Source of the DNA: Nitrospinales bacterium
Lineage (GTDB): Bacteria; Nitrospinota; Nitrospinia; Nitrospinales; JAJDAT01
Reading direction: 5' to 3'
Assembly (NCBI GenBank): GCA_046757665.1
Contig: JBHHYO010000020.1
Coordinates: 1 to 36,228, forward strand
DNA length: 36,228 nt
Below the pieces are notes generated by a model, which had not been told where the DNA came from, ran no database searches, and was given only the letters and a program-made list of their open reading frames with translations. Position numbers and translations under genes: made by a program. Numbering within the stretch: the first letter of the stretch is position 1; each line of letters starts with the position of its first letter. Shown here piece after piece: positions 321 through 32,498 of the stretch.

Positions 321-1286
321 CTAAAACGGCCAAAATTTGGCGGATTTTTTTTTGTGGAGAAGGATGGCGACGGGCTCTTTTTCATAAACCGGCGGATAAT
401 CGCGCAAGGAAACTAAAAAACCTCCATTCGCCGGGGCGATGATCTCCTCCAGTGTTTCGCCCGTGTACATATCCAGAATGCCGCCGATTTTTTGCCCCGG
501 TCGGAGAGTGACGCCGACTGGTGTTTCCGGGATGAACAAGCCTGCGTGGGTTGAGGTGAGCGTGATCTCGTTTTCCGGAGAATAAAAAGTTGCGTCGCAT
601 TTTTTTCCTCTTTCGCGGGAATGAGACAGCAAGCCCATGGCCAGCATCAGGTTGACCAGCCCGTTAAAAACGCTTTCGCAGTAGTTCCGGTTCAGGGAAC
701 CGATTTTGCCGGCGCTTATCATCAGAGAGGGAATGCCTTGTTCGGTCCACTGATGCAAAAGGTGGGTCTCGGGTAAATCCGAAACTTCGCGGACGGCGTC
801 AAGCCCAAGATGGCAGGCTGTTTTTTTTAGTCCGCGGTTGGGTCGAAGCAACTTTACATGCGGGGAGTCCTGGTAATGATTTGCGCCGCTCGAAAGTATG
901 ATGCCTTGGGCGGATTCTGCGGTGTGTTCAAGGATGGCGGCAGTCGCCTGTTCGCCGACCTCGCCACTTTCGTTTCCCGGAAAAGCCAGGTTCAGGTCCA
1001 ATTCGTCAAAAGGCCAGTTGCGGGTGCCGGACTGGGTGGCTCCAAAATTCACCACGGGAACAATCCGCACCTTGCCTTGGAGACGGTACTCCTTTTCCTT
1101 GCCTGCCGCTAGGGAGCGAAGGAATCGGCTAAGGCGCGCGGTGATGTAAAATCCGTTGATCTCGTTGCCGTGTAATCCGCCGACAATGGACAGAGTTTCG
1201 TCCAAGGCTCCCCCGTCCCAGGTACTATGGTACAGAGTGATGGAACCACCCATGGGAGATGGAATGGAGAGCAGGATTTTTTTCAT
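321..1286 (-). CDS. Succinylglutamate desuccinylase/aspartoacylase (M14) family protein, degenerate paralog
   Basis: GGLHGNE motif and C-terminal biotinyl/lipoyl-like HAGLF..PA.GG domain. Start set at the ATG at 1286, which overlaps the upstream TGA (ATGA), rather than at 1415. Confidence 0.85.
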   Translation of the reverse strand: MKKILLSIPSPMGGSITLYHSTWDGGALDETLSIVGGLHGNEINGFYITARLSRFLRSLAAGKEKEYRLQGKVRIVPVVNFGATQSGTRNWPFDELDLNLAFPGNESGEVGEQATAAILEHTAESAQGIILSSGANHYQDSPHVKLLRPNRGLKKTACHLGLDAVREVSDLPETHLLHQWTEQGIPSLMISAGKIGSLNRNYCESVFNGLVNLMLAMGLLSHSRERGKKCDATFYSPENEITLTSTHAGLFIPETPVGVTLRPGQKIGGILDMYTGETLEEIIAPANGGFLVSLRDYPPVYEKEPVAILLHKKKSAKFWPF

Positions 1287-2266
1287 TTTGGTTCGGCGTT
1301 TTTTGTGGCGATCCTGGCCAGGATTGCGCCCGAATAAGCCAGGGGAAGCTCTCTCAAAGTGAAAATAAAACCGTTGGCCGGGCTTTTTAACTCTTCCAAG
1401 ACGGTTCCGTGGCAAGGATCCACTACCTCGCCGAGCGTTTCTCCTTGCCGGATGTTTTGGCCGAGCGCCGCCCGCTTGATAAACAATCCGGGATGCTTTG
1501 CGTTGACGACGACGACCTGCTCCGGCCCGGCCAGCAGAGGATTTTTAACGGCGGGCGGGCCGCTTTTGCCCAGGTCCAGAATGCCGAGATGATGCAAAAA
1601 ATGAAGAATGCCGGAAAAAATCTGCTCGCCGGCGGCGGGTATCAGGCGCAGGCCGGTACCGGCTTCTATTACCAGCGTGGGAATCTTGCGCCGGTTTAAA
1701 TTGTAACTCAAGGTTGACTCGAATACCTTGGCCATGGGATGCACCCAGATGAGGTCCACGTTGCATTGTCTGGCCAGGGGAATCAGCTTTTTGTCGAACT
1801 TGCGGATGATGCGGATTTGCGGCGCTTCCTGCAAGTGCAGGTTGCCGGCATGAAAATCTACTACGAGGTCCGAACAGGAAATCAGGTCCTCCAAAAACCG
1901 GCGGCTGAAATGGGAGGGGAGCGAGGCTCCGCTCCGACCGCCGAACTGACGGTTCATGTCCTGACCGAAAAAAGGCCAAAGGCGCGTGGCGTCGCCAATG
2001 GCTTGCGGGTTTGCGGCAGGATAAATGTTGACCGCTCCCTTGATGGCTTGTGGGCGGGTCTGTTCCAGCTCGCGCAGGTAACGGATCAGTCGTGAGCAGA
2101 GGGACACTCCTTCCAGTTCGTCGCCATGGAGACCCGCAACCAGGGAAACCCGCTTGACGGGCCGGCCGGAAAACGGCGCGAAACTTTGCTTGACGATTTG
2201 GAAGGAATGGCTCAGCGGGCTTTTATACGATAGGAGCGTCCGTGTTTGCAAGCGGCTCTTCCTCAA
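1283..2266 (-). CDS. Succinylglutamate desuccinylase/aspartoacylase (M14) family metallohydrolase
   Basis: AGLHGDE, DMNRQF, DFHAG and IEAG motifs; TTG start overlaps the ntrC stop (TTGA). Confidence 0.88.
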   Translation of the reverse strand: MRKSRLQTRTLLSYKSPLSHSFQIVKQSFAPFSGRPVKRVSLVAGLHGDELEGVSLCSRLIRYLRELEQTRPQAIKGAVNIYPAANPQAIGDATRLWPFFGQDMNRQFGGRSGASLPSHFSRRFLEDLISCSDLVVDFHAGNLHLQEAPQIRIIRKFDKKLIPLARQCNVDLIWVHPMAKVFESTLSYNLNRRKIPTLVIEAGTGLRLIPAAGEQIFSGILHFLHHLGILDLGKSGPPAVKNPLLAGPEQVVVVNAKHPGLFIKRAALGQNIRQGETLGEVVDPCHGTVLEELKSPANGFIFTLRELPLAYSGAILARIATKNAEPK

Positions 2267-21311: not shown

Positions 21312-22356
21312 CGGATCGTTGAAAAACCGTCCTTGCAGGAAACAGCCATGCCGGTTCCCTGCGTTGTTGTCTACTCTCGTCGAAGCAATCCGTTCTCCGG
21401 CGTTGTGGGTTTTGCCGGTCGTCCTTATCGTTGCCGGATGGGGTTGCACTTTTTTAAAGGTCAATCTTTCTCCATCGGTTTCTCCTCTCAAGGAAAAGGT
21501 GATTTCCGACGAGGGCCCGGCGAAAATCCTTCTGCTGGATATTCGCGGTTTGATCGCCAACAAGAAACAACGCGGTTTCACGGGCGCCGAGCGGGACACG
21601 GGAATGGTGGACCGCGTCCGGGAGTCCCTGAAAAAGGCCGAAAAGGACGATGACATCAAGGCGATTCTGCTCCGCATCAACAGTCCCGGCGGTACCGTCA
21701 CCTCCAGTGACATTATCTACAACGAACTGCGGTCATTCAAAAAGAAGCGGAACATCAAGGTTTACGCCGCCCTCATGGATCTCGCCACCTCCGGTGGCTA
21801 TTATATCGCCGTGGCCGCCGACCACATTACCGCCCATCCCACTTCCATTACCGGAAGCATTGGGGTGATTGCCCTGAAGGTCAATCTGCAAGGGTTGATG
21901 GAAAAGATCGGCGTGGATTGGGAGGTGGTGAAGTCCGGCGACAAAAAGGATTTTCTGTCGCCATTTCGTTCATTTACCAAAAAGGAGCGGCAACTGTTTC
22001 AGGAAAATATCGATGATTTTCACCGGAGGTTTGTGGAGGTCATTGCCGAGAACCGTCCGGGGCTGGAACTCCCTGCTGTCCGGGAGTTGGCGGATGGCCG
22101 GATTTTCAGCGCCCGGCAAGCCCTGGACAACAAGCTGATTGACGATATCGGCTACCTGGATGATGTGCTGTCTCTAATAAAAAAGGACCTGGGTGATGCC
22201 CATGTCAAAGTCGTCACCTATTACCGCTCCGGAGAATATAAAAGTAATATCTATTCTTCCGTCAACGGCGCCCCCACCATCAACATGGTGAACATCGACC
22301 TTTCCTCCATTACCCTGAATAACTCTCCGCGGTTCATGTATCTTTGGATGCCTTGA
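21301..22356 (+). CDS. sppA: Signal peptide peptidase SppA (36K type)
   Basis: RINSPGG, ATSGGYY, TGSIGV, KSG..KD and ADGRIF motifs; start uncertain. Confidence 0.93.
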   Translation: MKISGSLKNRPCRKQPCRFPALLSTLVEAIRSPALWVLPVVLIVAGWGCTFLKVNLSPSVSPLKEKVISDEGPAKILLLDIRGLIANKKQRGFTGAERDTGMVDRVRESLKKAEKDDDIKAILLRINSPGGTVTSSDIIYNELRSFKKKRNIKVYAALMDLATSGGYYIAVAADHITAHPTSITGSIGVIALKVNLQGLMEKIGVDWEVVKSGDKKDFLSPFRSFTKKERQLFQENIDDFHRRFVEVIAENRPGLELPAVRELADGRIFSARQALDNKLIDDIGYLDDVLSLIKKDLGDAHVKVVTYYRSGEYKSNIYSSVNGAPTINMVNIDLSSITLNNSPRFMYLWMP

Positions 22357-22472
22357 AAATCTGCTCCCGACGGGCCTTGTCAACCGGGGTCTTTTGCTTG
22401 ATAATAAATTGTAGAATGATGATTTTTGTGAAGCTGGCTAAAAGATAATCTTGAGGAGCAAAGGCGAATCTT

Positions 22473-22817
22473 ATGCGCAAAAAAATCATTTTCATTATTT
22501 CTCTGCTGACCTTGGGAATTCTGATTTGCCCTGTAACCGGAAACTTTGAAATTTTTGCCGAGCAGGATGGGGGTGTTGTCATTTTCAAGGACACTAAAAA
22601 AATGCGTCCGGTGGTGTTCAGCCATCAGAAGCATTTGGCCGCCGGGAATTCATGCGAGGCCTGTCACGAAGGAATTTTTAAAAAGAAGAAAGGCAGTACT
22701 CCCAGCATAACCATGATGTCCATGAGAAAAGGCAAGTATTGCGGAACCTGCCATAACGGCAAGAAAGCCTTCACCGTCAAACATTCCTGTTCGAAATGTC
22801 ATTCCGGGCCTCGATAG
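22473..22817 (+). CDS. Triheme c7-type periplasmic cytochrome
   Basis: Signal peptide, VVFSHQKH, CEACH, ITMMSM, CGTCH and CSKCH. Confidence 0.88.
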   Translation: MRKKIIFIISLLTLGILICPVTGNFEIFAEQDGGVVIFKDTKKMRPVVFSHQKHLAAGNSCEACHEGIFKKKKGSTPSITMMSMRKGKYCGTCHNGKKAFTVKHSCSKCHSGPR

Positions 22818-22829
22818 CTTCCCGGTTAA

Positions 22830-23627
22830 ATGACCGAGAGGAAAAAGGTGTTCTTTAAGAATAAACTTTTAACCCTGCCCGTTGTTGTTCTCTCGGTCGT
22901 TTTTGTTTTTTTTGGCCCCCGCCTGCCGGATGCCGCGGAAAAGGCGCCGACGGGTAAATTCCAGTTCCATGCCGGGATCGCGCCTTTTAAGGACGGAGAA
23001 AAAGAAAAGTACCGGTTGCAGATCACCCAACCTTATGCTTTCTCCCTTAAAACGATTCAGCAAAGCATGGCCGCGTTGGGTTATCAGGAAAGAACCGTTT
23101 CCTGGTCCAAAAAAAAGCGGGTTTTTAACAATGAGGCCATCAAAATCCTGGGGCCCATGATTCTGAAAAGATTTGCCCAGGCCGATTCCAATCAGCGCAT
23201 CGTTTTTAAGGTCCTGAGCCCCTCGGGAAGAGTGATAACTCTTGGCGACACGTTTTTGACTCCGTTGGGACTGCACTGGCGCTTTACCGTGATGAGTCGC
23301 GTCCGGCGCAAGATCGACGATTTCAGCGTCATGGGAGATTCGTGGAAGCTGGTTTTGCGGAAGGGGCTGGTCTATAAAAAGAAGATGCGGAAGGATTTGA
23401 ATAACCTGGTTCAGGACATCAGCAACTGGATGGTGTTTCCTAAAATTCGTCCCGTCAAGGCGCGTCTGGTAAAAAAATCTACTCCCCCCTCGGCAGATGC
23501 GCCGGCAAACGAAATCTCCAGCCGCATCAAGAAAAGACTGCGTATACTGGAAGACCTTCAGAAAGAAAGTTTGATCAGCGAGGCAGAATATAATAAAAAG
23601 CGTCGGGAAATTCTGAAAGGTTTTTAG
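22830..23627 (+). CDS. Exported hypothetical protein with C-terminal SHOCT-like domain
   Basis: N-terminal hydrophobic segment; ends RLRILEDL...LISEAEYNKKRREIL. Confidence 0.75.
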   Translation: MTERKKVFFKNKLLTLPVVVLSVVFVFFGPRLPDAAEKAPTGKFQFHAGIAPFKDGEKEKYRLQITQPYAFSLKTIQQSMAALGYQERTVSWSKKKRVFNNEAIKILGPMILKRFAQADSNQRIVFKVLSPSGRVITLGDTFLTPLGLHWRFTVMSRVRRKIDDFSVMGDSWKLVLRKGLVYKKKMRKDLNNLVQDISNWMVFPKIRPVKARLVKKSTPPSADAPANEISSRIKKRLRILEDLQKESLISEAEYNKKRREILKGF

Positions 23628-23630
23628 CCG

Positions 23631-23666
23631 AAAAAAAATCCCCCTTCCTCATTAAGAGGAAGGGGG
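23631..23666 (-). terminator. Rho-independent terminator for the Cyc2-like gene (possibly bidirectional)
   Basis: 11-bp stem CCCCCTTCCTC/GAGGAAGGGGG with a 5-nt loop; the A8 tract gives a U-tract on the minus strand; lies between convergent genes. Confidence 0.85.
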
Positions 23667-23680
23667 CCTTGTTGACGTGT

Positions 23681-24946
23681 TCAGAACATCGAGCGAATTT
23701 CCATTTTAAATTCGCTTTTGGTTTGAATGGCTCCACTGACATCCACCCGCCCCGTCAAACCCACCTTGAAGTTGTTCCTCGCCAAATACCAGATGGACGG
23801 GGAAATCTTGTTCAATCCCAAGGCGAGAATATCATCCGAGGTGATTTGATCGTACTGGAGAACATAAAACCAATTATCCCTTAAGTAGGCTCCCGTAACC
23901 GTCAAGCCCTGAAACTCCTTCTGTATGCTGGAGGTGGGATTCAGGTCGAAGTTCTCGTCCTGTGCGAATTGGTAGGCGAACAACAAATCGAAGTTTCTCT
24001 CGGATTTTTGCGTGTTGAAGCGAAGATTGCCGGAAATGGTATAGCGCCGGAAATCGTTTTCAATCTGGCTGGCAACACTGCTGGCGGTGTCGGTGCCGTC
24101 ATAATAATGAAAAGCGACGCTACTGCCTTCAAACCGGTCACCGCCGATTTTGGGCAGATAGGCGCGGGCGCCAGCCCAGAAATTCTTCTTGCGGTCGGTA
24201 TCGCTGGCGTCCTTGCCGTTGTCCAACCCGGCATACCATAGAAAAGGTCCCTTGTAGCCATAGTATTGAACGCCCGGTCTTGGCGACCGGATGTTTACGG
24301 AATTTTCACCCAGGCCGTTGGAGGACTTGACGTTCAGAATGTCCGACTTTTGGAAAATCCGCAGTCGGTCGGCGTAGGGCGTAAAATCCACCGGCGACAA
24401 CCTGCCGACCTGAAAATTGACCAAGGTCGTATTGAAGATGTTGGCATATTTCAGATTGAACCATTCGATTTCCGAGGCGTCATCCGTAAAGGTCTGTTCG
24501 ATGAAAAGGCCCATGTTCTTAAACAGGGTGCCGCCCACGAAAAAATTCAGTTCCTTGGTCTTCCCGACATTGAATGAATCTTGCGTCTTGCCGTTTTGCG
24601 TGACGCTGTTCGTCTTGTATTCGAATGGGGTTATCTGGATGCGCGCTCCAAACCAATGCGAGACCTTGTCGATAAACAAGTCTTCCGAAAGTTCTTCCTT
24701 GCCGGTTTTGTCGCCATCGGGCGCTTCTCCGGGCCATTGATAGGCGTTTCGCATGAACTTTTCGCCGAAAAAGTTCAGCCGCGGAAAAACGGTGTGACAG
24801 GTGCTACACTTGACCCCGTATTTCCGGGCCCATTGGGCAAGTGCCTGCGCGTCCTGGGCGGCGAACAGAAAAACCAGGTTCCACAGCAGAAAAAGAGAAC
24901 TCCCCGTGAGAGCAATTCCTGAAAAACGCTTTCCGAATGTTTTCAT
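23681..24946 (-). CDS. Cyc2-like fused monoheme cytochrome c / outer-membrane beta-barrel
   Basis: Signal peptide, then WARKYGVKCSTCHTVFPRLNFFGEKF; the rest is rich in amphipathic strands and aromatic residues and ends in Phe (EIRSMF). Confidence 0.78.
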   Translation of the reverse strand: MKTFGKRFSGIALTGSSLFLLWNLVFLFAAQDAQALAQWARKYGVKCSTCHTVFPRLNFFGEKFMRNAYQWPGEAPDGDKTGKEELSEDLFIDKVSHWFGARIQITPFEYKTNSVTQNGKTQDSFNVGKTKELNFFVGGTLFKNMGLFIEQTFTDDASEIEWFNLKYANIFNTTLVNFQVGRLSPVDFTPYADRLRIFQKSDILNVKSSNGLGENSVNIRSPRPGVQYYGYKGPFLWYAGLDNGKDASDTDRKKNFWAGARAYLPKIGGDRFEGSSVAFHYYDGTDTASSVASQIENDFRRYTISGNLRFNTQKSERNFDLLFAYQFAQDENFDLNPTSSIQKEFQGLTVTGAYLRDNWFYVLQYDQITSDDILALGLNKISPSIWYLARNNFKVGLTGRVDVSGAIQTKSEFKMEIRSMF

Positions 24947-24978
24947 GTTTGTCCTCCCATTTTAAGACTTAGAACAAG

Positions 24979-25007
24979 GTTATATGGCGATCTGTACACT
25001 TTGTCAA
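24979..25007 (-). promoter_or_regulatory. Candidate sigma70 promoter for the Cyc2-like gene
   Basis: TTGACA (25007-25002), 17 nt spacer, TATAAC (24984-24979); GGGAGGA ribosome-binding site before the ATG. Confidence 0.7.
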
Positions 25008-25064
25008 GCAGTCATTTGAACGCCTTTGCGATGGCGAATATTTTGGGATTGTCAGGATTCATTT

Positions 25065-26531
25065 TTATTGGACGTAGCGTTTTTTGAATTCGGCGGCGGC
25101 CGCCTTGCGCCGCTTTTTTTCCTCCGCCGGCATTTTGCCGAGGAACCATCTATGTTCATCGGTGTTCAGGATTTTATCCAGTTCCTTGAGGACCGCCCTG
25201 GCGGTGGCGGCGGCCTTTCCGCCCTTGCGGATGGCCTTTTCGCAGGCCTCCCGTGTCTCCGGAACGAAATGAATATAAAACCGTTTGGCGACCTCGAAAA
25301 ATCCGTGCCATTGGGTGTAATCGGGAGCCATCATGGAAGCGCCGTGCCTGGCCCGTCTTCCTTCATGGTGCCACAGGAAGAAGTAGGTCCATTCCAGTGG
25401 CTCGTCGAAGGCGACGGGGGTCAACACGCCGCCCGCCTTCATCATTTTAATAAGTTTAGTGGATGGGATCCCGTATTTTTCATTGTACAGATTGACGGCG
25501 CTGTCGAATTGCCGATAAAACCCTTCGACATACAAGTCCGAATGACAGCTGGCGCAAACGTTCATCATATTTTCCCGGCGGTCTTGCCAGCTTTCGACTT
25601 GCTTGCCGTCTTTTATAGCCTTGGCGTCGATTTTTTCCGAAATCGGCGGCCGCAAGGTCCAGGAAATCCGCTTGCCGACATCGTGTGTCACCGGCTGGTC
25701 CGCGGTGGCGCTCATGTGACAGGTCGCGCAAGTCGGCGCGGCGGTGTATTCGATACCTACGCGCCAGGGTTGCGCGGTGATATTCATATACTCCAGGTTG
25801 GCCTTGAAGGCGATACCGTGTTTGGACTCCTCGTAAATCTCTTTCTGCGGATGGTCGGGGCCCATGTGGCATTTTCCGCAACTGTCCGGCCCGCGGGCGA
25901 CCGCCATGGAAAAATTGTGCCGCGAATGGCAAGCCGTACAGGACCCCTTGCTACCGTCCGGGTTCAGCCGTCCGATGCCGGTGTTGGGCCAGGTGGACGG
26001 GTCGGGGCGGCCATCTTCCATGATCTTCACCACCGAACCGTGGCACTGCCAACAGCCATTGACCGCGGCCGGAGACGCACCGTTAAGCGACAATCGATGC
26101 GTATCCCCCTCCACCACCTCCGCCAGAACATTGTCCAGGGAACCCAGGATTTTTCCTGCGTCGGCGTGGTGCGATGCCTGGAACTGATCGTTCTGCGTCT
26201 GATGGCATTTGGAGCAGTCTTTTGGGGATACGATAACGGCGATCAAAAAACCCTCATGATCCCAGGCATCGACCTCGGTCTTTTCCGCTTCATGGCAATC
26301 GAAACAGGCAACGCCCTTGAGGGCATGTTTGCTGTCTCTCCATTGTTCCACCAGGGAAGGCGTGGTTACCGTATGACAATCGATGCAAAGCTCGCTTGAC
26401 GCGGGAATCTTGATTGCCGCCTTCTTGCCTACGATTCTCTTGTTGCCCTCAATGGCGCCGACCACCAGCAGGGCGCCGAGAAAAAATAAGCCGATAACCG
26501 CGATGATGATTCTTTTGGTATTGAGCGACAT
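25065..26531 (-). CDS. Octaheme cytochrome c, hydroxylamine oxidoreductase (HAO) family, probably reductive type
   Basis: Eight CxxCH (CIDCH, CFDCH, CSKCH, CWQCH, CTACH, CGKCH, CATCH, CASCH); HAO-type W..SKH, CH.RH.FS, GPDHPQ.EIY.ESKHG, APTCATCHM and PDY..WHG. Confidence 0.9.
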   Translation of the reverse strand: MSLNTKRIIIAVIGLFFLGALLVVGAIEGNKRIVGKKAAIKIPASSELCIDCHTVTTPSLVEQWRDSKHALKGVACFDCHEAEKTEVDAWDHEGFLIAVIVSPKDCSKCHQTQNDQFQASHHADAGKILGSLDNVLAEVVEGDTHRLSLNGASPAAVNGCWQCHGSVVKIMEDGRPDPSTWPNTGIGRLNPDGSKGSCTACHSRHNFSMAVARGPDSCGKCHMGPDHPQKEIYEESKHGIAFKANLEYMNITAQPWRVGIEYTAAPTCATCHMSATADQPVTHDVGKRISWTLRPPISEKIDAKAIKDGKQVESWQDRRENMMNVCASCHSDLYVEGFYRQFDSAVNLYNEKYGIPSTKLIKMMKAGGVLTPVAFDEPLEWTYFFLWHHEGRRARHGASMMAPDYTQWHGFFEVAKRFYIHFVPETREACEKAIRKGGKAAATARAVLKELDKILNTDEHRWFLGKMPAEEKKRRKAAAAEFKKRYVQ

Positions 26532-26551
26532 GATTCACCCGTGAGTTTGGA

Positions 26552-27610
26552 TTAAGCCAACGCTTCCCAGACGGTTAAGGCCAGGTAAAAGGAAAAGCCG
26601 AAAAAACCGATCCAGACGCTCAGCTCCCGTTTGGGAAATTGTTTTTCCAACAGTTGGTCGATAAACGGCCACAAAACGATGATGCCGACAAAAAAGATCT
26701 GACCGAGGATGCCGATATAAACGTTGTTGAGTTTCAGCCACCGGAACGAGGCGTAAAAATACCATTCCGGTTTGATATGGTCGGGCGTCAACAGGGGGTC
26801 AGCCGGCTCGCCCACTCCAGCGGGAAAAATAATCGCCATGATCGTCAGCAAATATAGAATCAGTATGGCAATCAACAATTCCGTCAGCGCGTGATTCGGG
26901 ATTAAAGGGAAAGTTTTATGCTCCAGTTTTTTTTCCTCGTCAAACTCGAACTCCGTGACCCCGTGCAGGCGGATGAAAATGATGTGCACCGCCACCAGAC
27001 CGGCCAATATTGCCGGCAAAATCACGACGTGAAAAACATACAACCGGGTCAGGGTGTTTCCCGTCACTTCGGAACCGCCGCGAACAAAATCGGCCGCGGC
27101 TTGCCCGACAACGGGAACTTTCGCGGCGATCTGCGTGCCCACCATAGCCGCCCAGTAAGAAAGCTGGTCGTAGATGAGGGAATAGCCCGTAAACCCGAGA
27201 CCCAGAACCACGAATAAGATCACCACGCCGATCATCCAGTTCAGTTCCCTTGGTTTGCGGTAAGCGCCGGTAAAAAACACCCGCGACATATGCAACATGA
27301 CGGTTACGATCATGAGTTCGGACGCCCATTTGTGCAGGCTTCGGATATACCAGCCGAACCGCACCTCGTTGGAAATCCGGGTGACGCTGTTGTAAGCCTC
27401 CTCGGGAGTGGGCACATAGTGGAACAATAGAAATATTCCCGTAACGACCTGAATGACAAACAGGATGGCTGGCGTTCCTCCCAGCGCGAACCACCAGTGT
27501 TTGAGATGGTTGGGAACCGGCTCGTTGGTCAGGGTTTTTAACTCCTGCGGATCGACGGGAATCCTCTCCTTCACCCATTCCCCTATCCAGGATTTTTTCG
27601 ATTCAGGCAA
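26552..27610 (-). CDS. Cytochrome b/b6 (fused with subunit IV) of a Rieske/b complex
   Basis: Four heme-b His (SLH, MLH, VFH, AVH), YRKPRELNW, GFTGY and IKPEWYF Qo motif. Confidence 0.95.
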   Translation of the reverse strand: MPESKKSWIGEWVKERIPVDPQELKTLTNEPVPNHLKHWWFALGGTPAILFVIQVVTGIFLLFHYVPTPEEAYNSVTRISNEVRFGWYIRSLHKWASELMIVTVMLHMSRVFFTGAYRKPRELNWMIGVVILFVVLGLGFTGYSLIYDQLSYWAAMVGTQIAAKVPVVGQAAADFVRGGSEVTGNTLTRLYVFHVVILPAILAGLVAVHIIFIRLHGVTEFEFDEEKKLEHKTFPLIPNHALTELLIAILILYLLTIMAIIFPAGVGEPADPLLTPDHIKPEWYFYASFRWLKLNNVYIGILGQIFFVGIIVLWPFIDQLLEKQFPKRELSVWIGFFGFSFYLALTVWEALA

Positions 27611-28064
27611 GGAACACCTCGTCCACGTAGATATAAATGGATTGATTGATGACTTCGATCCGGTACGAGCGCAGAGGCGCCGGGGGCGGGCCTTTCAGCA
27701 CCTTTCCCCTGGCATCGAAAACTCCTCCGTGGCAGGGGCAGTAAAATATTTTCCGGTCCTGTTTCCAATGCACCCGGCATCCCAGGTGGGTGCATCGGCT
27801 GGAAAGAGCGATAAACTCTTCGCCGGTATTGGTGATGGCGATTTCCTGACCCTTCAGGTCCTTGAAATTCAGGTGATGCCCCGGCGGGATGCGGTCGATC
27901 GTGGCGACAAAAAGTTTCCGCGTCAGCTTTTTTGCGGGTGGCGGGATAAGATATTTGGCGGCATAAACACCCAACAGGGCAAAGCCGGCAAAAAGGCTGG
28001 AACCCATGAGTGCGTAAGAGAAAAACTCTCTCCTCGTTGCGCTCTTGTCCTCGATCTTTTTCAT
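27603..28064 (-). CDS. Rieske [2Fe-2S] subunit
   Basis: TRREFF Tat anchor, CTHLGC, CPCHGG and GPPPAPL; overlaps cytochrome b by 8 nt. Confidence 0.95.
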   Translation of the reverse strand: MKKIEDKSATRREFFSYALMGSSLFAGFALLGVYAAKYLIPPPAKKLTRKLFVATIDRIPPGHHLNFKDLKGQEIAITNTGEEFIALSSRCTHLGCRVHWKQDRKIFYCPCHGGVFDARGKVLKGPPPAPLRSYRIEVINQSIYIYVDEVFLA

Positions 28065-28092
28065 GTTACGCCTTTAGTGTAACCAGCAACAA

Positions 28093-28121
28093 CTTGTAGC
28101 AGTAGGAATAGTACATGTCAA
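28093..28121 (-). promoter_or_regulatory. Candidate sigma70 promoter for the Rieske/cytb/octaheme operon
   Basis: TTGACA (28121-28116), 17 nt spacer, TG-n-TACAAG (28098-28093). Confidence 0.55.
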
Positions 28122-28364
28122 GGCTCTCTTGGTCCCAAAGCATTCATATTTTGTACCAAAAGCCCCGGCGGTTCCCCTGTTCAAAAATTCCTGTTAAATC
28201 AAAGCGTTGCCGGGGTATGTTCGAACGCCGGGACGGGCTTCCCTGACACGGCCCGATAGTTATCAAAACCTTTTTGGGAAAATCCAAAAAATTTTGGGTC
28301 GGTAAAATACAACCCCTGGCATAAAAAATGTTTCCCCCTTGCCGCCGGAAAGGTAAAATGAAAC

Positions 28365-29018
28365 ATGATTGTCGATCTTAACCTGAAAGGCAGGCACGCC
28401 GTGGTCTTTGGCGGCGGCCGGGAAGCCGTCCGCAAGGTCGATGCGCTTTTGACCCAGGACTGCCGTGTCACCGTCGTCGCTGAATCGGTCGATGAAGAAC
28501 TCCGGCGCTGGGCGGCGGAAAAAAAAATCGACCTGCTCCAGCGGCGCGTCGAAAACGGCGACTGCCTGCGGCAGTTCGACAACCTGCTCCTGGTCATTGC
28601 CGCAACTGACGACGCCTCCCTGAACCGCCGTCTGGTGGAGACGGCAAAAGCGTTGTGCTGTTACGCTTATGCGGTGGACGATCCGGAGCACAGCGATTTC
28701 CGCCATCCCGCCGTGATCAACCTTTACGACACCGTGCAGATTGCCGTTTCCACCCAGGGCAAAAGCCCCCTCATGGCCGGGAAAATCCGCGACCGCATCG
28801 AACCGGTTCTCAGGAATCTGGTCACCAGGGAAGACATCCTGCAAATCCGGTTGCAGGAAAAAATGCGGACGGTCGCAAAACATGAATTGGCCGGCGCCGA
28901 CGCCAGAAAACGGTTCCTCGTGAATATGTTGCAGGACGAGGAGATCAAGAGCCTGCTGGAGCAGGGTAAACTGAAAGAAGCCGAAACCGCGGCCTTGAAT
29001 AAATTGCAACGCGGCTGA
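28365..29018 (+). CDS. Precorrin-2 dehydrogenase/sirohydrochlorin ferrochelatase (SirC/Met8/CysG N-terminal type)
   Basis: GGG..A.RK, IAATDD..LN, VDDP..SDF..PA and IAVSTQGKSP motifs. Confidence 0.92.
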   Translation: MIVDLNLKGRHAVVFGGGREAVRKVDALLTQDCRVTVVAESVDEELRRWAAEKKIDLLQRRVENGDCLRQFDNLLLVIAATDDASLNRRLVETAKALCCYAYAVDDPEHSDFRHPAVINLYDTVQIAVSTQGKSPLMAGKIRDRIEPVLRNLVTREDILQIRLQEKMRTVAKHELAGADARKRFLVNMLQDEEIKSLLEQGKLKEAETAALNKLQRG

Positions 29019-29050
29019 GTCCAACCCCCTTTATTCAAAGAAAAGAGGAC

Positions 29051-29296
29051 TTGGTGAATACCTCAAAACCAAAATTTCAAGTTGGACAACAAGTGCGTCA
29101 CAAGCTGTTCAATTACTGCGGCGTGGTTGTTGGCGTTGATCCCGAATTCCAGAGCACCGAGGAGTGGTATCAAATGATGGCCAAAACCCGGCCGCCCAAG
29201 GACAAGCCCTGGTATCACGTCATGGTCAGTGACGGGAACCGCCATACTTACGTGGCCGAGCGCAATCTCGAAATTGATCCGATCACTTTAAATTAA
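29051..29296 (+). CDS. hspQ: Heat shock protein HspQ (YccV-like), short form
   Basis: KFQVGQ.VRHKLF.Y.GVV..VDPEF, PWYHV and YVAERNL motifs. Confidence 0.88.
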   Translation: MVNTSKPKFQVGQQVRHKLFNYCGVVVGVDPEFQSTEEWYQMMAKTRPPKDKPWYHVMVSDGNRHTYVAERNLEIDPITLN

Positions 29297-29319
29297 CTCA
29301 CCTCCCGAAGAAAGGTCTT

Positions 29320-29493
29320 ATGGATACCGTTATTGCAATTGTGGTTGCCGCTTTTCTGGCATTCATGGTTTATTCGATGATTCGCTACGCCCGGTTTATT
29401 CACAACTACCCCCATGAAAGCCCGGAGGAGAAAAAGCGCACGGATGAAAACCCGCCACCGGCGGACCCTGACCGCCCATCGAAGGGAGAATGA
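29320..29493 (+). CDS. Small single-TM membrane protein (57 aa, absent from the ORF track)
   Basis: AAAGG-ATG; reads MDTVIAIVVAAFLAFMVYSMIRYARF...PSKGE; fills the gap between hspQ and the VOC gene. Confidence 0.7.
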   Translation: MDTVIAIVVAAFLAFMVYSMIRYARFIHNYPHESPEEKKRTDENPPPADPDRPSKGE

Positions 29494-29496
29494 GCC

Positions 29497-30096
29497 ATGA
29501 TCGAATCGGCCGATGAGTTTTTTTCGCGGTATATGAAGGCATATCTAGCGGAAAACCGGGCGGCCGGCCTGCTGGCCGAGTCTCTCAAACGTTGCGGCAC
29601 GGGCATCATGCCGCTGGTGGACCACTGCACCCTGCGGACCCGGGACGTTGACCGCCGGGCCAAACAGGTTGTGCAATTCGGATACCGCTACGACGACACC
29701 ATCGGCGTGCTGGAATTCGATAATTGGTGGGCAAAGGTTTATCGAAAACCGGGGTTCCCGGCATTGTTCATCGACCAGGCTTTTGCCGGCGAGCGGGGCA
29801 GGGACAGTCTGATCCCCGAATGGGTTGCGGCGCATGGAGAAGAATGTTTTCATCATATCGCCCTCCGGGTTGAGGATATCGACGCGGCTATCGACGCCAT
29901 GGAATCCCGCGGCGTCGAATTCGCCGGAACTATCGTTGGCGAAAAAGGCTCCGACCTGCGGCAGATTTTCACCCGTCCGGAATTAAGAGACGGCAAGGTT
30001 TTTACGGTTCTGGAACTCATCGAGCGGCACAACGGTTACGAGGGGTTTCTTCCTCCTCAGGCGGACGGCCTCATGCAGTCCACCCGCAAGCCATAG
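29497..30096 (+). CDS. VOC-superfamily metalloenzyme (HPPD/HglS-like)
   Basis: DHCTLRT, HHIALRVEDID, LRQIFT and LELIER..GF motifs. Confidence 0.8.
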   Translation: MIESADEFFSRYMKAYLAENRAAGLLAESLKRCGTGIMPLVDHCTLRTRDVDRRAKQVVQFGYRYDDTIGVLEFDNWWAKVYRKPGFPALFIDQAFAGERGRDSLIPEWVAAHGEECFHHIALRVEDIDAAIDAMESRGVEFAGTIVGEKGSDLRQIFTRPELRDGKVFTVLELIERHNGYEGFLPPQADGLMQSTRKP

Positions 30097-31568: not shown

Positions 31569-32498
31569 TCAGTGTTCCCGGGGCGCAAGCATATCCGGGT
31601 TGGAGTAATTGACCAGGTTGGGAGAATTCCGGGCGCCTTCGCTGAGAATGAGCGTTTTGAGGTTGGTCAACGTTTTGCTTTCCGACAGAGCCTTGGCCCC
31701 TTCGGGTCCAAAACGATTTCTTGCAACGCGCAGTTCGGTCAAACCGGCGAGCGTCGTGGATTGGGCCAGCGCCTTGGCTCCCGGGTCGCCGAACAGGTTG
31801 TTGTCCAGGCGCAGTCTCTTGAGTCCCCGGACGGTTTCCGCGGCGGCCAGAAGCTCGATACCCGCGTCGGTGATTTTGTTGGAAGACAAAGTCAACTCCT
31901 CCATTCCGGCAAGGCCTGGCCATTGTACGAGGTCGGCCACGCCTGCGTCGTCAAGGTATCCCCTTTCCATGGAAAAGATTTTCAGTTTTAGAAGGCCGCG
32001 GCTCAAGGCCGCAACGGCCCCGTTGCCCACCTTGTTGTAATCCAGGTTGAGCGAGGTCAGCGTTTTAAAATTCGCGGAAGCCGCCAATTCGGAAATGGCG
32101 TCATCCGTCAGGCGGTTGTCGTTGAGCGTCAACACCTGGAGACGCTTGATACCCGGCTGTTGCAAGGCGGCGATATCCCGTATGCCCTCATCCGTAATGA
32201 AATTGATCCCAAGGTTGAGTTCGCGCAGATTCCCCAGCCGGTCGGATTCAAAAAGAATTCGCAACGCCGGAGCGGCGATTTGGTTGTCGCTTAAATCCAG
32301 CGACTCGACGCCGCAGACCCGTTCCGATTGAGTGATGACGGACAGCTCGTCGGTGGAAATATATTGTCCCGAAAGCTTCAGGAGCTTGCCGTTTTGCTTC
32401 AGTTGCTCGTGGATGATTTCCAGCAAACGGGCCTTCTTTTCCTCCAGGCCGGGCTGGCTACTCTCATATTCGGCGTTGCCGCCTCGAATAATAGCCAT
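31569..32498 (-). CDS. Leucine-rich repeat protein (RI-like, ~28-aa repeats)
   Basis: Repeated LxxLxLxxNxI/LxDxG units. Confidence 0.88.
   Translation of the reverse strand: MAIIRGGNAEYESSQPGLEEKKARLLEIIHEQLKQNGKLLKLSGQYISTDELSVITQSERVCGVESLDLSDNQIAAPALRILFESDRLGNLRELNLGINFITDEGIRDIAALQQPGIKRLQVLTLNDNRLTDDAISELAASANFKTLTSLNLDYNKVGNGAVAALSRGLLKLKIFSMERGYLDDAGVADLVQWPGLAGMEELTLSSNKITDAGIELLAAAETVRGLKRLRLDNNLFGDPGAKALAQSTTLAGLTELRVARNRFGPEGAKALSESKTLTNLKTLILSEGARNSPNLVNYSNPDMLAPREH

Follow-up and report, generated by a model that had tools for sequence, protein, structure and literature searches.

Two adjacent respiratory modules, a Rieske/b-octahaem operon and a Cyc2-like porin locus, in a Nitrospinales bacterium

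Do neighbouring genes for redox proteins of the outer membrane, periplasm and inner membrane encode one chain of electron transfer? A locus in a Nitrospinales bacterium raises this question. It lies in a stretch of 36,228 nucleotides (contig JBHHYO010000020.1), here called the window. We established the gene identities, the folds, the conservation and the recurrence of the adjacency. The region consists of two conserved respiratory modules placed side by side. By sequence comparison, module 1 is assigned as Rieske, fused cytochrome b and HAO-like octahaem. Module 2 is a Cyc2-like monohaem porin with a c7 trihaem cytochrome and a non-redox periplasmic protein of 265 aa.

Table 1. Features of the locus (window coordinates)
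Feature	Position	Strand	Basis
Cytochrome c7, periplasmic trihaem, 114 aa	22473-22817	+	PF14522, TIGR04257, 3 CxxCH
265-aa protein, function unassigned	22830-23627	+	sub-threshold SHOCT match only
Hairpin, terminator-like, between two convergent units	23640-23666		terminator scan
Cyc2-like fused monohaem cytochrome-porin, 421 aa	23681-24946	-	1 CxxCH, predicted barrel, hhalign
Octahaem-to-barrel gap, 118 nt	24947-25064	-	promoter-like elements by eye
HAO-family octahaem cytochrome c, 488 aa	25065-26531	-	PF13447, 8 CxxCH
Cytochrome b, b6 and subunit IV fused, 352 aa	26552-27610	-	PF00033 + PF00032
Rieske [2Fe-2S] subunit, 153 aa	27603-28064	-	PF00355
sirC / CysG N-terminal domain, 217 aa	28365-29018	+	TIGR01470

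Components and signals of the two modules

The ORF list and family searches recovered the six redox genes of the original prediction at their positions. Its haem counts for the trihaem, barrel and octahaem proteins (3, 1 and 8) also agree with ours, and the trihaem gene is on the strand opposite to the barrel gene (Table 1).

In module 1, the octahaem scores 88.9 bits against PF13447. Its nearest solved relative is 4qo5 (IhOCC), with E = 5.2e-51 from the single sequence and 1.7e-65 from a profile. The N-terminal hydrophobic anchor is conserved (alignment A2). These comparisons place the membrane-anchored octahaem in the IhOCC/εHao type of the HAO family. It is the sole c-type cytochrome of the operon. 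The cytochrome b matches PF00033 (183.1 bits) and PF00032 (37.4 bits) in one protein. The Rieske subunit (PF00355, 52.1 bits) has a twin-arginine-like RREFF, read by eye. Across seven Nitrospinota operons, orthologues share 76-79% identity for cytochrome b and 53-61% for Rieske. Both genes lie directly upstream of the octahaem in all seven other Nitrospinota genomes with an orthologue, and in 14 of 80 loci across phyla. NapA follows the operon at seven of the nine loci of other phyla with readable downstream genes; the three candidates tested all exceed the NCBIfam cut-off. Nitrite reduction is assigned to this type of operon in the accessible parts of two papers (PMC6606698, PMC5317091). By analogy, the complex of module 1 probably reduces nitrite.

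The 421-aa barrel protein of module 2 matched no family in Pfam or NCBIfam. Its haem motif is ALAQWARKY-GVK-CSTCH-TVF-PRL, and its C-terminus ends in ...RSMF. The AlphaFold2 model (mean pLDDT 86.2, pTM 0.83) predicts 16 long strands from residue 99 to 420, with the CxxCH in a short helical N-terminal part ahead of them. With this model, Foldseek returned 256 PDB matches at E <= 0.001; among those listed are the general porins OmpU, OmpF and PorB (best E 1.2e-12). With hhalign, the barrel family aligned to Nitrospinota AIPxFARKY proteins over 384 columns (probability 99.95, E 1e-38). The most conserved part of the protein is its haem-binding stretch. The close subfamily has few members: the profile matched 3287 representative clusters, and 85 of them reach E <= 1e-30.

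The c7 cytochrome scores 64.6 bits against PF14522 and 86.5 bits against TIGR04257 (cut-off 40), and has a signal peptide, read by eye. Its orthologues (43-54% identity) adjoin the Cyc2-like gene in L019, L020, L021, L022 and L028, and also in L172, L173, L176 and L246. The only Pfam match of the 265-aa protein is a sub-threshold SHOCT (16.1 bits against 27). Its N-terminus is a signal or anchor, its core of about 170 aa is conserved but lacks conserved Cys or His, and a SHOCT-like helical hairpin lies at the C-terminal end. A word-indexed search found ten homologues, none with a name, and the nearest Atlas clusters are chiefly Nitrospinota. Its AlphaFold2 model (pLDDT 81.3) had no PDB match at E <= 0.001 in Foldseek, and VIA-align matched the C-terminal helices only. 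The c7 partner is present in all loci orthologous for the 265-aa gene.

The hairpin between the convergent units has 11 pairs, eight of them G-C, followed by a T run on the - strand. It is the strongest terminator-like site within 22000-29500, and both the Cyc2-like gene and the c7/265-aa pair end at it. The gap between octahaem and barrel genes is 118 nt long, and the scan found no - strand terminator-like site in it, as originally proposed. The promoter claimed for the barrel gene has a counterpart too. By eye, we read TTGACA (25007-25002), a 17-nt spacer, TATAAC (24984-24979) and a GGGAGG ribosome-binding site. The promoter scan does not list this site, because its rule requires T at the end of the second hexamer. 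The gap of the G068-type block, described below, carries an 11-pair terminator-like hairpin. With the c7/265-aa pair on the opposite strand, these sequence signals suggest that the modules are separate transcription units. The G068-type hairpin likewise suggests that their co-transcription is not conserved.

Recurrence of the block and exchange of its parts

The adjacency is not unique to this genome, a point on which the original prediction depended. The gene order Rieske, cytochrome b, HAO, Cyc2-like, 265-aa and c7 occurs with unchanged orientation in genome G068, which represents a different family. Relative to the window, identity is 57% (Rieske), 77% (cytochrome b), 79% (HAO), 51% (Cyc2-like), 45% (265-aa protein) and 47% (c7). 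Metagenome contigs add further examples: among 17 loci with Cyc2-like identity of at least 49% to the window, five (L172-L176) contain the six-gene block. The G068-type block has other flanks, with an ABC transporter and a UbiA gene at one end and MqnC-like and chemotaxis genes at the other. A gene order repeated in independent assemblies is more than chance.

Module 2 is kept in the four orthologous loci first examined (4/4). Rieske/b lies within 5 kb of a close Cyc2-like orthologue in five of six Nitrospinota genomes (120 searched). These are G000 and G068, with the HAO type, and G017, G020 and G023, with the b6 type. In G000, cytochrome b loci number only three in 2.97 Mb. Cyc2-like loci labelled Bacteroidota, Zixibacteria and Elusimicrobia also have Rieske/b and multihaems within about 6 kb. 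This recurrent pairing favours a functional link.

The modules are separable, and each is found without the other. The Rieske/b-HAO operon was seen in nine Nitrospinota genomes, and in seven of them it lacks a Cyc2-like neighbour, as it does in 80 of 80 loci from other lineages. Conversely, in a non-redundant set of 20 close Cyc2-like orthologues, 8 have neither Rieske/b nor the c7 and 265-aa genes nearby.

The nearest relative, L160, encodes a Cyc2-like protein that shares 82% identity with that of the window. Its DNA matches the window only at 31068-28340 and 24949-23829. Between these matches, L160 carries a 5.2-kb Rieske/b6/subunit IV cluster with c554-like, c3-like and NapC/NirT-like multihaems, against the 3.4-kb operon of the window. 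DNA similarity stops at 24949, and the window gap shows no homology to what precedes the L160 Cyc2-like gene. Judging from this alignment, the Rieske/b cassette was swapped in the same slot. In other relatives, the Cyc2-like module adjoins a different Rieske/b6 multihaem cluster. The Cyc2-like tree pairs the window with L160 (support 100/100) and places L172 and L175 among clades with the other Rieske/b type as neighbour. Therefore, the neighbour type switched two or more times, with a Rieske/b neighbour kept throughout. Whichever Rieske/b type adjoins, a membrane-anchored multihaem can be encoded immediately upstream of the Cyc2-like gene and on its strand. It is HAO-like in the window; in L160 and L020, it is NapC/NirT-like with 11 CxxCH.

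The tetrapyrrole gene, listed alongside the redox components in the original prediction, proved to be a flank gene outside the conserved block. From its TIGR01470 match (129.9 bits), sirC is assigned as precorrin-2 dehydrogenase / sirohydrochlorin ferrochelatase. It is syntenic with yccV, a glyoxalase gene and an FAD-oxidase gene whichever Rieske/b type adjoins, and is missing from the G068-type block. Siroheme-type NIR_SIR proteins are encoded elsewhere in the window genome.

A possible link between the modules

The proposed chain of redox parts is supported in part. The recurrent Cyc2-like and Rieske/b pairing speaks for it; the separability of the modules, their apparently separate transcription and the position of sirC outside the block do not. 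We consider a functional link plausible, with a probability of about one half. By analogy with known cases, module 1 would take electrons from quinol and pass them, at the periplasmic face, to nitrite (alternatively to hydroxylamine or NO). We infer that the modules exchange electrons, and likewise the direction and the substrate. An extracellular donor, for which dissolved Fe(II) is the most plausible candidate, would give electrons to the haem of the Cyc2-like protein. From this haem, c7 would relay them to the Rieske/b complex at its membrane-anchored multihaem subunit. In one branch, nitrite would be reduced at the catalytic haem of the octahaem. In the other, electrons would go uphill through Rieske/b into the quinone pool, comparable to the branch of iron oxidisers from Cyc2 to bc1 for reverse electron flow (PMC8406198 and PMC7029218, parts available to us).

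The adjacency might also be devoid of functional meaning. Self-sufficient modules would then sit in a variable region where recombination swaps respiratory cassettes. Module 1 would reduce nitrite with quinol for assimilation or detoxification, and module 2 would have an unrelated role at the outer membrane. Each module stands alone in many genomes, G014 has them on separate contigs, different cassettes fill the slot beside sirC in close relatives, and the gap bears promoter-like (window) or terminator-like (G068-type) signals, all in line with this explanation. Nevertheless, a second family has the whole block in other genomic surroundings. Moreover, what the slot holds is not arbitrary: each of its two cassettes is a Rieske/b module with multihaems. 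The Cyc2-like and Rieske/b pairing is also repeated in three distant phyla. We consider a meaningless adjacency somewhat unlikely. Electrons could also flow outward, from quinol through Rieske/b, the octahaem haem chain, c7 and the Cyc2-like porin to an extracellular acceptor such as Fe(III), Mn(IV) or a partner cell. The c7-type cytochromes are best known for outward electron transfer in metal reducers, and c7 trihaems and NapC/NirT-like multihaems are parts that metal reducers use. Both occur beside the Cyc2-like gene in L160 and L020, and other large multihaems of the genome score against the NCBIfam Geobacter Ext models. This direction is nevertheless quite improbable, given that Fe(III) is insoluble at neutral pH and that Rieske/b requires an acceptor of higher potential than quinol. 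In addition, the Cyc2 proteins that have been characterised oxidise Fe(II), each with one buried haem believed to react with Fe2+ in solution (PMC8406198, in the portion consulted).

It is very doubtful that the 421-aa protein is no conduit at all. On this reading it would be a porin with a haem used in sensing, or in taking up or handling a small solute such as an N-oxide or a metal ion, and c7 would serve the Rieske/b-octahaem alone. The fold resembles general diffusion porins, and two residues of the published Cyc2 motif are changed in the protein (P to A and F to W). In G031, a c7 homologue lies divergent beside the Rieske/b-HAO operon with no Cyc2-like gene there, a point that also speaks for the functional link. 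On the other hand, homology to canonical Cyc2-motif proteins extends over the full length, and conservation peaks at the haem-binding stretch. Distant Cyc2-like relatives most commonly have, as the next gene downstream, one for a small periplasmic monohaem cytochrome, and a 10-CxxCH protein often comes after it. We favour the functional link; recurrence of the block in a second family hints at a possible route from outside iron to nitrogen chemistry.

Comparison with known systems

The original prediction did not recognise the arrangement as described, but its Rieske/b-octahaem part is already in print. Nitrospira moscoviensis has two Rieske/b genes upstream of 'ONR', and Caldithrix abyssi has εHao beside Rieske/b. 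Bc-like operons with an octahaem are known in Nitrospina gracilis, Kuenenia and Methylomirabilis. The window shares with the known operons the order Rieske, cytochrome b and octahaem, without a mono- or dihaem c1. NapA adjoins window-type operons in other phyla, as in Caldithrix. The window and G068 differ in the Cyc2-like porin after the octahaem, which the available parts of the literature on these operons do not mention. IhOCC (Igni_0955, PDB 4qo5), an octahaem nitrite reductase from the archaeon Ignicoccus hospitalis, was recovered from the soluble as well as the membrane fraction (PMC4429474). Among multihaems, it is a member of the HAO/HDH/IhOCC clade, and it has no P460 cross-link (PMC9250108, accessible portion). 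In contrast, the window octahaem has a conserved N-terminal anchor and lies inside a Rieske/b operon.

One redox part per envelope layer is also found in the MtrAB, PioAB and MtoAB conduits and with the PpcA-type c7 shuttle of Geobacter. A c7-type periplasmic carrier is common to the window locus and the porin-cytochrome conduits of metal reducers. Unlike the MtrAB type, the window has no decahaem threaded through a 26-strand barrel. It encodes a predicted 16-strand barrel with its own fused haem.

The Cyc2 proteins of iron oxidisers (Acidithiobacillus ferrooxidans Cyc2, Mariprofundus Cyc2PV-1 and Leptospirillum Cyt572) share more with the window protein. Like them, the window protein carries a signal peptide, one CxxCH near the N-terminus, PxL four residues past the haem motif and a 16-strand porin barrel, predicted here, and it is about 420 aa long. 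The pathway idea is also common, since in Cyc2 systems a periplasmic cytochrome delivers electrons to complex III (PMC7029218, parts available). Nevertheless, the window subfamily has the motif A-x-[A/S]-x-[W/F]-A-R-K-Y instead of the published A-x-P-x-F-A-R-[Q/K]-[T/Y]. Its partners are the c7 trihaem and the 265-aa protein, not Cyc1 or rusticyanin. The adjoining complex bears an HAO-type octahaem, and the host is a member of a nitrite-oxidiser phylum.

Genes and signals of the six-gene block

The block of interest consists of two modules. Module 1 is an operon with Rieske, cytochrome b, and HAO-like octahaem genes. Module 2 is a triad formed by a Cyc2-like porin, a trihaem c7 cytochrome, and a 265-aa protein. 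The original prediction had listed these genes, except the 265-aa one, among others of a possible electron conduit across the envelope. The seven genes in the table below are all present as open reading frames at the expected positions, and their families are those that had been claimed. An S49 peptidase gene borders the block on one side and sirC on the other. The remainder of the window carries ordinary housekeeping genes.

Features of the six-gene block and its border, with the alternative b6-type cluster of related loci
Feature	Position	Strand	Remarks
c7 trihaem cytochrome	22473-22817	+	3 CxxCH; TIGR04257, 86.5 bits (cut-off 40)
265-aa protein	22830-23627	+	0 CxxCH; SHOCT match below threshold only
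Terminator-like hairpin, strongest in the region	23640-23666		between the convergent barrel gene and c7/265-aa pair
Cyc2-like barrel protein, 421 aa	23681-24946	-	1 CxxCH; no Pfam or NCBIfam family
HAO-type multihaem, 488 aa	25065-26531	-	8 CxxCH; PF13447 match
Fused cytochrome b	26552-27610	-	
Rieske protein	27603-28064	-	
Siroheme-synthase N-terminal-domain protein (sirC)	28365-29018	+	
b6-type cluster, nearest relative of the window locus	L160:2760-7997		
b6-type cluster, another relative	L020:10593-15690		
b6-type cluster, a further relative	L022:10581-14590		

The gap between the octahaem stop and the barrel start measures 118 nt (24947-25064), as had been proposed. It was described as free of an obvious terminator, and our scan lists none on the minus strand there. 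The barrel gene was also credited with its own promoter. Read by eye, the gap holds a promoter-like TTGACA, a 17-nt spacer, and TATAAC, together with a GGGAGG ribosome-binding site. The automated scan misses the promoter-like site because of its last base. A search for sequencing runs covering 22400-28100 listed none from RNA.

Two other loci of the window are unusual. A 309-aa protein (31569-32498, minus strand) consists almost entirely of leucine-rich repeats (PF13516, PF12799), which is odd for a free-living bacterium. At 321-2266 (minus strand), two reading frames that overlap or stand in tandem each match the AstE/AspA catalytic domain, and a sigma-54 two-component pair adjoins them.

The accessible part of PMC8406198 defines Cyc2 by a signal peptide, one CxxCH, an upstream AxPxFAR[Q/K][T/Y] motif, a PxL four residues downstream of the CxxCH, and a 16-strand porin, with at least 365 aa. 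The barrel protein shows every one of these features that sequence or model can address, except the upstream motif. Its N-terminus reads by eye as a signal peptide (a basic stretch, a hydrophobic stretch, and A-Q-A). The single CxxCH occupies residues 47-51 and precedes the PxL (CSTCH-TVF-PRL); F54, P55, and R56 are invariant in our alignment of the subfamily (A1). The AlphaFold2 model, built with 39 homologues (pLDDT 86.2), has a short helical haem-binding head ahead of 16 long strands between residues 99 and 420. Foldseek returns 256 PDB chains at E <= 0.001. The best is OmpU (E 1.2e-12), and the matches listed include the general porins OmpU, OmpF, and PorB.

The upstream motif reads A-L-A-Q-W-A-R-K-Y, with alanine instead of proline and tryptophan instead of phenylalanine. 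The subfamily consensus is A-V-S-Q-W-A-R-K-Y. Paralogues from related Nitrospinota genomes carry the canonical A-I-P-x-F-A-R-K-Y. We aligned A1 by hhalign with a set of such Nitrospinota proteins (A5), chosen by the canonical motif alone and none of them an assayed Cyc2; the probability is 99.95, with E 1e-38 over 384 columns. Given this profile homology and the divergent motif, we name the protein Cyc2-like. By sequence, it is a homologous sister subfamily and not a filed Cyc2 member, and its Fe(II) oxidase activity is putative. The profile finds 3287 representative clusters at E <= 0.001 and 85 at E <= 1e-30; at the sequence level, this is a small subfamily within a large superfamily. Most of the named homologues belong to Nitrospinae/Nitrospinaceae MAGs. 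The alignment query recovered relatives among the genome contigs, where a single-sequence query gave no confirmed one.

The barrel gene has two partners, the c7 and 265-aa genes. The c7 protein is assigned to the trihaem c7 domain by both its profile score and its haem motifs. The 265-aa family has few relatives, unnamed and mostly from Nitrospinota, and no conserved Cys or His. Its AlphaFold2 model is confident (pLDDT 81.3). With the whole model as query, Foldseek finds no PDB match at E <= 0.001, and a wide VIA-align search reaches Z up to 6.5 for the C-terminal helical hairpin only, with no match for the core. The predicted complex of barrel residues 37-421 with residues 36-215 of the 265-aa protein scores 0.03 against a mark of 0.32, which is evidence neither way. 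The first four related genomes in which a close orthologue was detected (G014, G017, G020, and G023) share the layout of the window, with both partner genes downstream of the Cyc2-like gene in convergent orientation. Separately, genome G031 has a c7 trihaem (L153:10054-10362), 45% identical to that of the window, divergently upstream of a Rieske/b-octahaem operon, though this genome has no close Cyc2-like orthologue.

The octahaem and Rieske/b operon

The eight CxxCH and the PF13447 match place the octahaem in the HAO family, whose homologues are very numerous (at least 8000 candidates at E <= 0.001). Pattern matches in species genomes were confirmed in 597 of 603 cases. The best solved relative is IhOCC (PDB 4qo5, E 5.2e-51; profile E 1.7e-65); HAO, HDH, and HAO-like PDB chains give 1e-15 to 1e-22. 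Alignments to N. europaea HAO end at chain residue 402-403, short of the C-terminal region that holds the cross-linking tyrosine of that enzyme. The octahaem resembles IhOCC, which has no P460, more closely, and this is only a hint that it may lack the tyrosine of oxidative HAOs. The portion of PMC9250108 at hand groups IhOCC with HAO and HDH and describes it without the P460 cross-link.

In the window, Rieske and cytochrome b genes directly precede the octahaem gene, with no other c-type subunit. Fourteen of the best 80 loci repeat this arrangement with nearly fixed spacing, under labels such as Acidobacteriota, Calditrichaceae, Bacteroidales, Planctomycetota, and Cloacimonadota; a Calditrichaceae MAG locus (L068) has it at 58% identity. 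Among 41 related Nitrospinota genomes, eight, the window's included, carry an orthologue of the octahaem (77-100% identity), and two more a 51% paralogue. The gene order is the same in all seven of the other Nitrospinota orthologue loci.

Outside Nitrospinota, nine Rieske/b-octahaem loci have readable downstream genes. Seven of them continue with a NapA-type periplasmic nitrate reductase gene and a small cytochrome (two or four CxxCH, mostly four), and the three NapA candidates tested all exceed the curated NCBIfam cut-off. These continuations are seen in L068, L069, L074, L075, L079, L094, and L117. The operon with NapA and the small cytochrome is a compact candidate cluster for nitrate conversion to ammonium. 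We had considered whether the large haem-free product encoded after Rieske/b-HAO in other phyla might be a porin, giving a further type of conduit; it proved to be NapA. In three other Nitrospinota genomes (G028, G014, and G011; L152:8423-9971, L155, and L157), the genes after the octahaem encode, in turn, a 222-aa fusion of a monohaem cytochrome with an unknown domain and a 267-aa exported protein that matches no family. We asked whether the 222-aa protein was a shortened Cyc2-like one; instead, it combines a class-I-type cytochrome c with a second domain and lacks the Cyc2 motif.

This operon has precedents in the accessible parts of three papers. In Nitrospira moscoviensis, two Rieske/b genes precede the gene of an octahaem nitrite reductase and are expressed together with it (PMC6606698). 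In Caldithrix abyssi, εHao adjoins Rieske/b and Nap (PMC5317091). The bc-like operon of Nitrospina gracilis, which Kuenenia and Methylomirabilis share, includes an atypical octahaem (PMC3578206). The layout in the window matches the Nitrospira ONR and Caldithrix εHao operon type. So, the original view that the arrangement was not recognised as described holds for the six-gene block, which we did not find in the texts available to us, and does not hold for the Rieske/b-octahaem operon, which was already published. Considering this operon type, the likeness to IhOCC, and the NapA neighbours, module 1 most likely uses quinol to reduce nitrite or a related N-oxide.

Recurrence of the adjacency and exchange of the Rieske/b neighbour

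No Cyc2-like gene lies near the octahaem gene in the 80 loci of other lineages or in the seven other Nitrospinota operons. Searching from the Cyc2-like side, we found matches at E <= 1e-60 in eight of 120 Nitrospinota genomes. One of them, G068, belongs to a different family and has exactly the order Rieske-cytochrome b-octahaem-Cyc2-like, followed by the 265-aa and c7 genes on the other strand. Five metagenome contigs (L172-L176) carry the same six-gene block, L176 starting inside the octahaem gene, and their Cyc2-like proteins are of two kinds. Thus, the adjacency of the Cyc2-like gene to HAO and Rieske/b, for which a conservation check had been proposed, is not unique to the window's genome. 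The flanks of the G068-type block are unlike those of the window, with ABC transporter and UbiA genes at one end and MqnC-like and chemotaxis genes at the other. The sirC gene had been listed alongside the redox genes; on synteny, we reject it as part of the system. In the G068-type contigs, a UbiA prenyltransferase gene (L172:2570-3427) and an MqnC/CofH-like radical SAM gene (L172:9643-10782) bracket the block, and the two may have a role in making menaquinone.

In G017, G020, G023, L160, L168, and L170, a different cluster adjoins the triad, or as much of it as the contig covers. This b6-type cluster encodes a GYD-domain protein, a c554-like protein with five CxxCH, Rieske, b6, subunit IV, and a c3-like protein with five CxxCH. 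It occurs in nine of the 41 related genomes, and the window's genome (G000) has no orthologue of it. In L160 and L020, the gene that immediately precedes the Cyc2-like one, on the same strand, encodes a NapC/NirT-like protein with 11 CxxCH; tblastn similarity indicates that this is probably also the case in G020. The L160 locus is the closest to the window, with 82% identity in the Cyc2-like protein and 85-90% for the sirC, yccV, glyoxalase, and FAD-oxidase genes. At the DNA level, similarity is confined to 31068-28340 and 24949-23829 of the window. The match is broken between sirC and the Cyc2-like start codon, and therefore one Rieske/b cassette replaces the other.

A tree of 20 non-redundant close Cyc2-like orthologues, which omits exact duplicates and G068, shows the distribution of the two neighbours. 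The HAO type stands beside three, the b6 type beside six, and for three the contig is too short for a call. The remaining eight have neither type, and they also have no c7 and 265-aa genes. The window and L160 are paired with support of 100/100, and L172 and L175 are nested among clades with the b6-type neighbour. On this tree, the neighbour type has switched at least twice, and a Rieske/b neighbour was kept each time. The 2.97 Mb of G000 contain only three cytochrome b loci. We estimate a chance adjacency within 5 kb at about 1% per genome, a figure whose use as a formal test is weakened by the relatedness of the genomes.

Among distant Cyc2-like loci, three (labelled Bacteroidota, Zixibacteria, and Elusimicrobia) have Rieske/b and multihaem genes within about 6 kb. 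The commonest neighbour is a small monohaem cytochrome directly downstream (10 of 39 clustered loci). It has 114-170 aa in L032, L040, L044-L046, L048, L049, L052, L053, and L055, mostly labelled Ignavibacteria, and several of these loci encode close by a 10-CxxCH protein of roughly 512 aa.

A candidate electron route and its relation to known systems

The host phylum is known for nitrite oxidation. In G000, a 1153-aa alpha subunit of the type II DMSO-reductase family and a 425-aa beta subunit (G000:C22:10463-15299; L242:1464-6300) fit a periplasmic nitrite oxidoreductase (NXR-like), both scoring under all curated cut-offs. Therefore, the host is probably a nitrite oxidiser. The same genome has a second Rieske/b6 complex (G000:C13:7352-13968; L240:2353-8969), with an FAD-dependent pyridine-nucleotide-disulfide oxidoreductase before it and a 911-aa protein with 8 CxxCH after it; it resembles the anammox-type Rieske/b complexes with an NAD(P)-linked subunit. 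Two adjacent large multihaems (G000:C10:40730-45546; L241:11731-16547), of 880 aa with 10 CxxCH and 721 aa with 11 CxxCH, match the NCBIfam Geobacter ExtM model under its cut-off. A dihaem SoxX-like protein adjoins them.

We observe here the identities of the parts, their folds and predicted compartments, and a recurrent, twice-rebuilt adjacency of Cyc2-like and c7 genes with Rieske/b-multihaem modules. From this, we infer that the two modules exchange electrons, and inward flow is the most economical reading. The Cyc2-like haem would oxidise an outside donor, most plausibly dissolved Fe(II), in the way of characterised Cyc2 proteins. The c7 protein would then ferry the electrons to the membrane-anchored octahaem. 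There, they could either reduce nitrite at the catalytic haem or move uphill, by way of Rieske/b, into quinone.

In its most specific form, the six-gene block of this nitrite-oxidiser lineage would be an envelope-spanning Fe(II):nitrite oxidoreductase system, running from Fe(II) through Cyc2-like, c7, and octahaem to nitrite. Rieske/b would let the same haem chain trade electrons with the quinone pool in either direction, and sister lineages, with their b6-type cassette, would have an alternative form of this plug-in. We consider this tentative, with a probability of roughly one in five. Several observations argue against a link between the modules. They are separable, and in G014 the two lie apart. 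The barrel gene of the window has its own promoter-like site. The gap of the G068 type contains an 11-pair terminator-like hairpin, although that of L175 has none.

Both modules are of known kinds. Cyc2-like genes have been noted in Nitrospinaceae/Nitrospinota MAGs (PMC11995701, PMC6850669, PMC9769843), and the accessible portions of these papers make no mention of their pairing with Rieske/b or of the cassette swap. We found neither the six-gene block nor the swap in the parts of the literature searched. The locus touches an old open question: whether Fe(II) oxidation is enzymatically coupled to nitrate or nitrite reduction, and by which proteins. It offers a compact and conserved candidate, with an outer-membrane Cyc2-type haem-porin and a periplasmic c7 beside a quinol-linked octahaem reductase. 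If the Fe(II):nitrite reading is true, the block would define, at the level of genes, an enzymatic route by which iron oxidation is coupled to the reduction of N-oxides. A second question is the source of low-potential electrons in nitrite oxidisers, for which a cheap supply would be useful in assimilating nitrite or producing NAD(P)H. Each of the six proteins is of a size suited to expression and assay, so the idea is directly testable.

Compared with known systems, the proposed uphill branch would be analogous to the Cyc2-periplasmic cytochrome-bc1 route of iron oxidisers, as the available parts of PMC7029218 and PMC10654088 present it. On the other hand, the block differs from the MtrAB/PioAB type of conduit. 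In that type, a barrel of about 26 strands encloses a separate decahaem, whereas the barrel of the window has 16 strands with a fused monohaem, and the CxxCH counts reveal no decahaem gene in the block.
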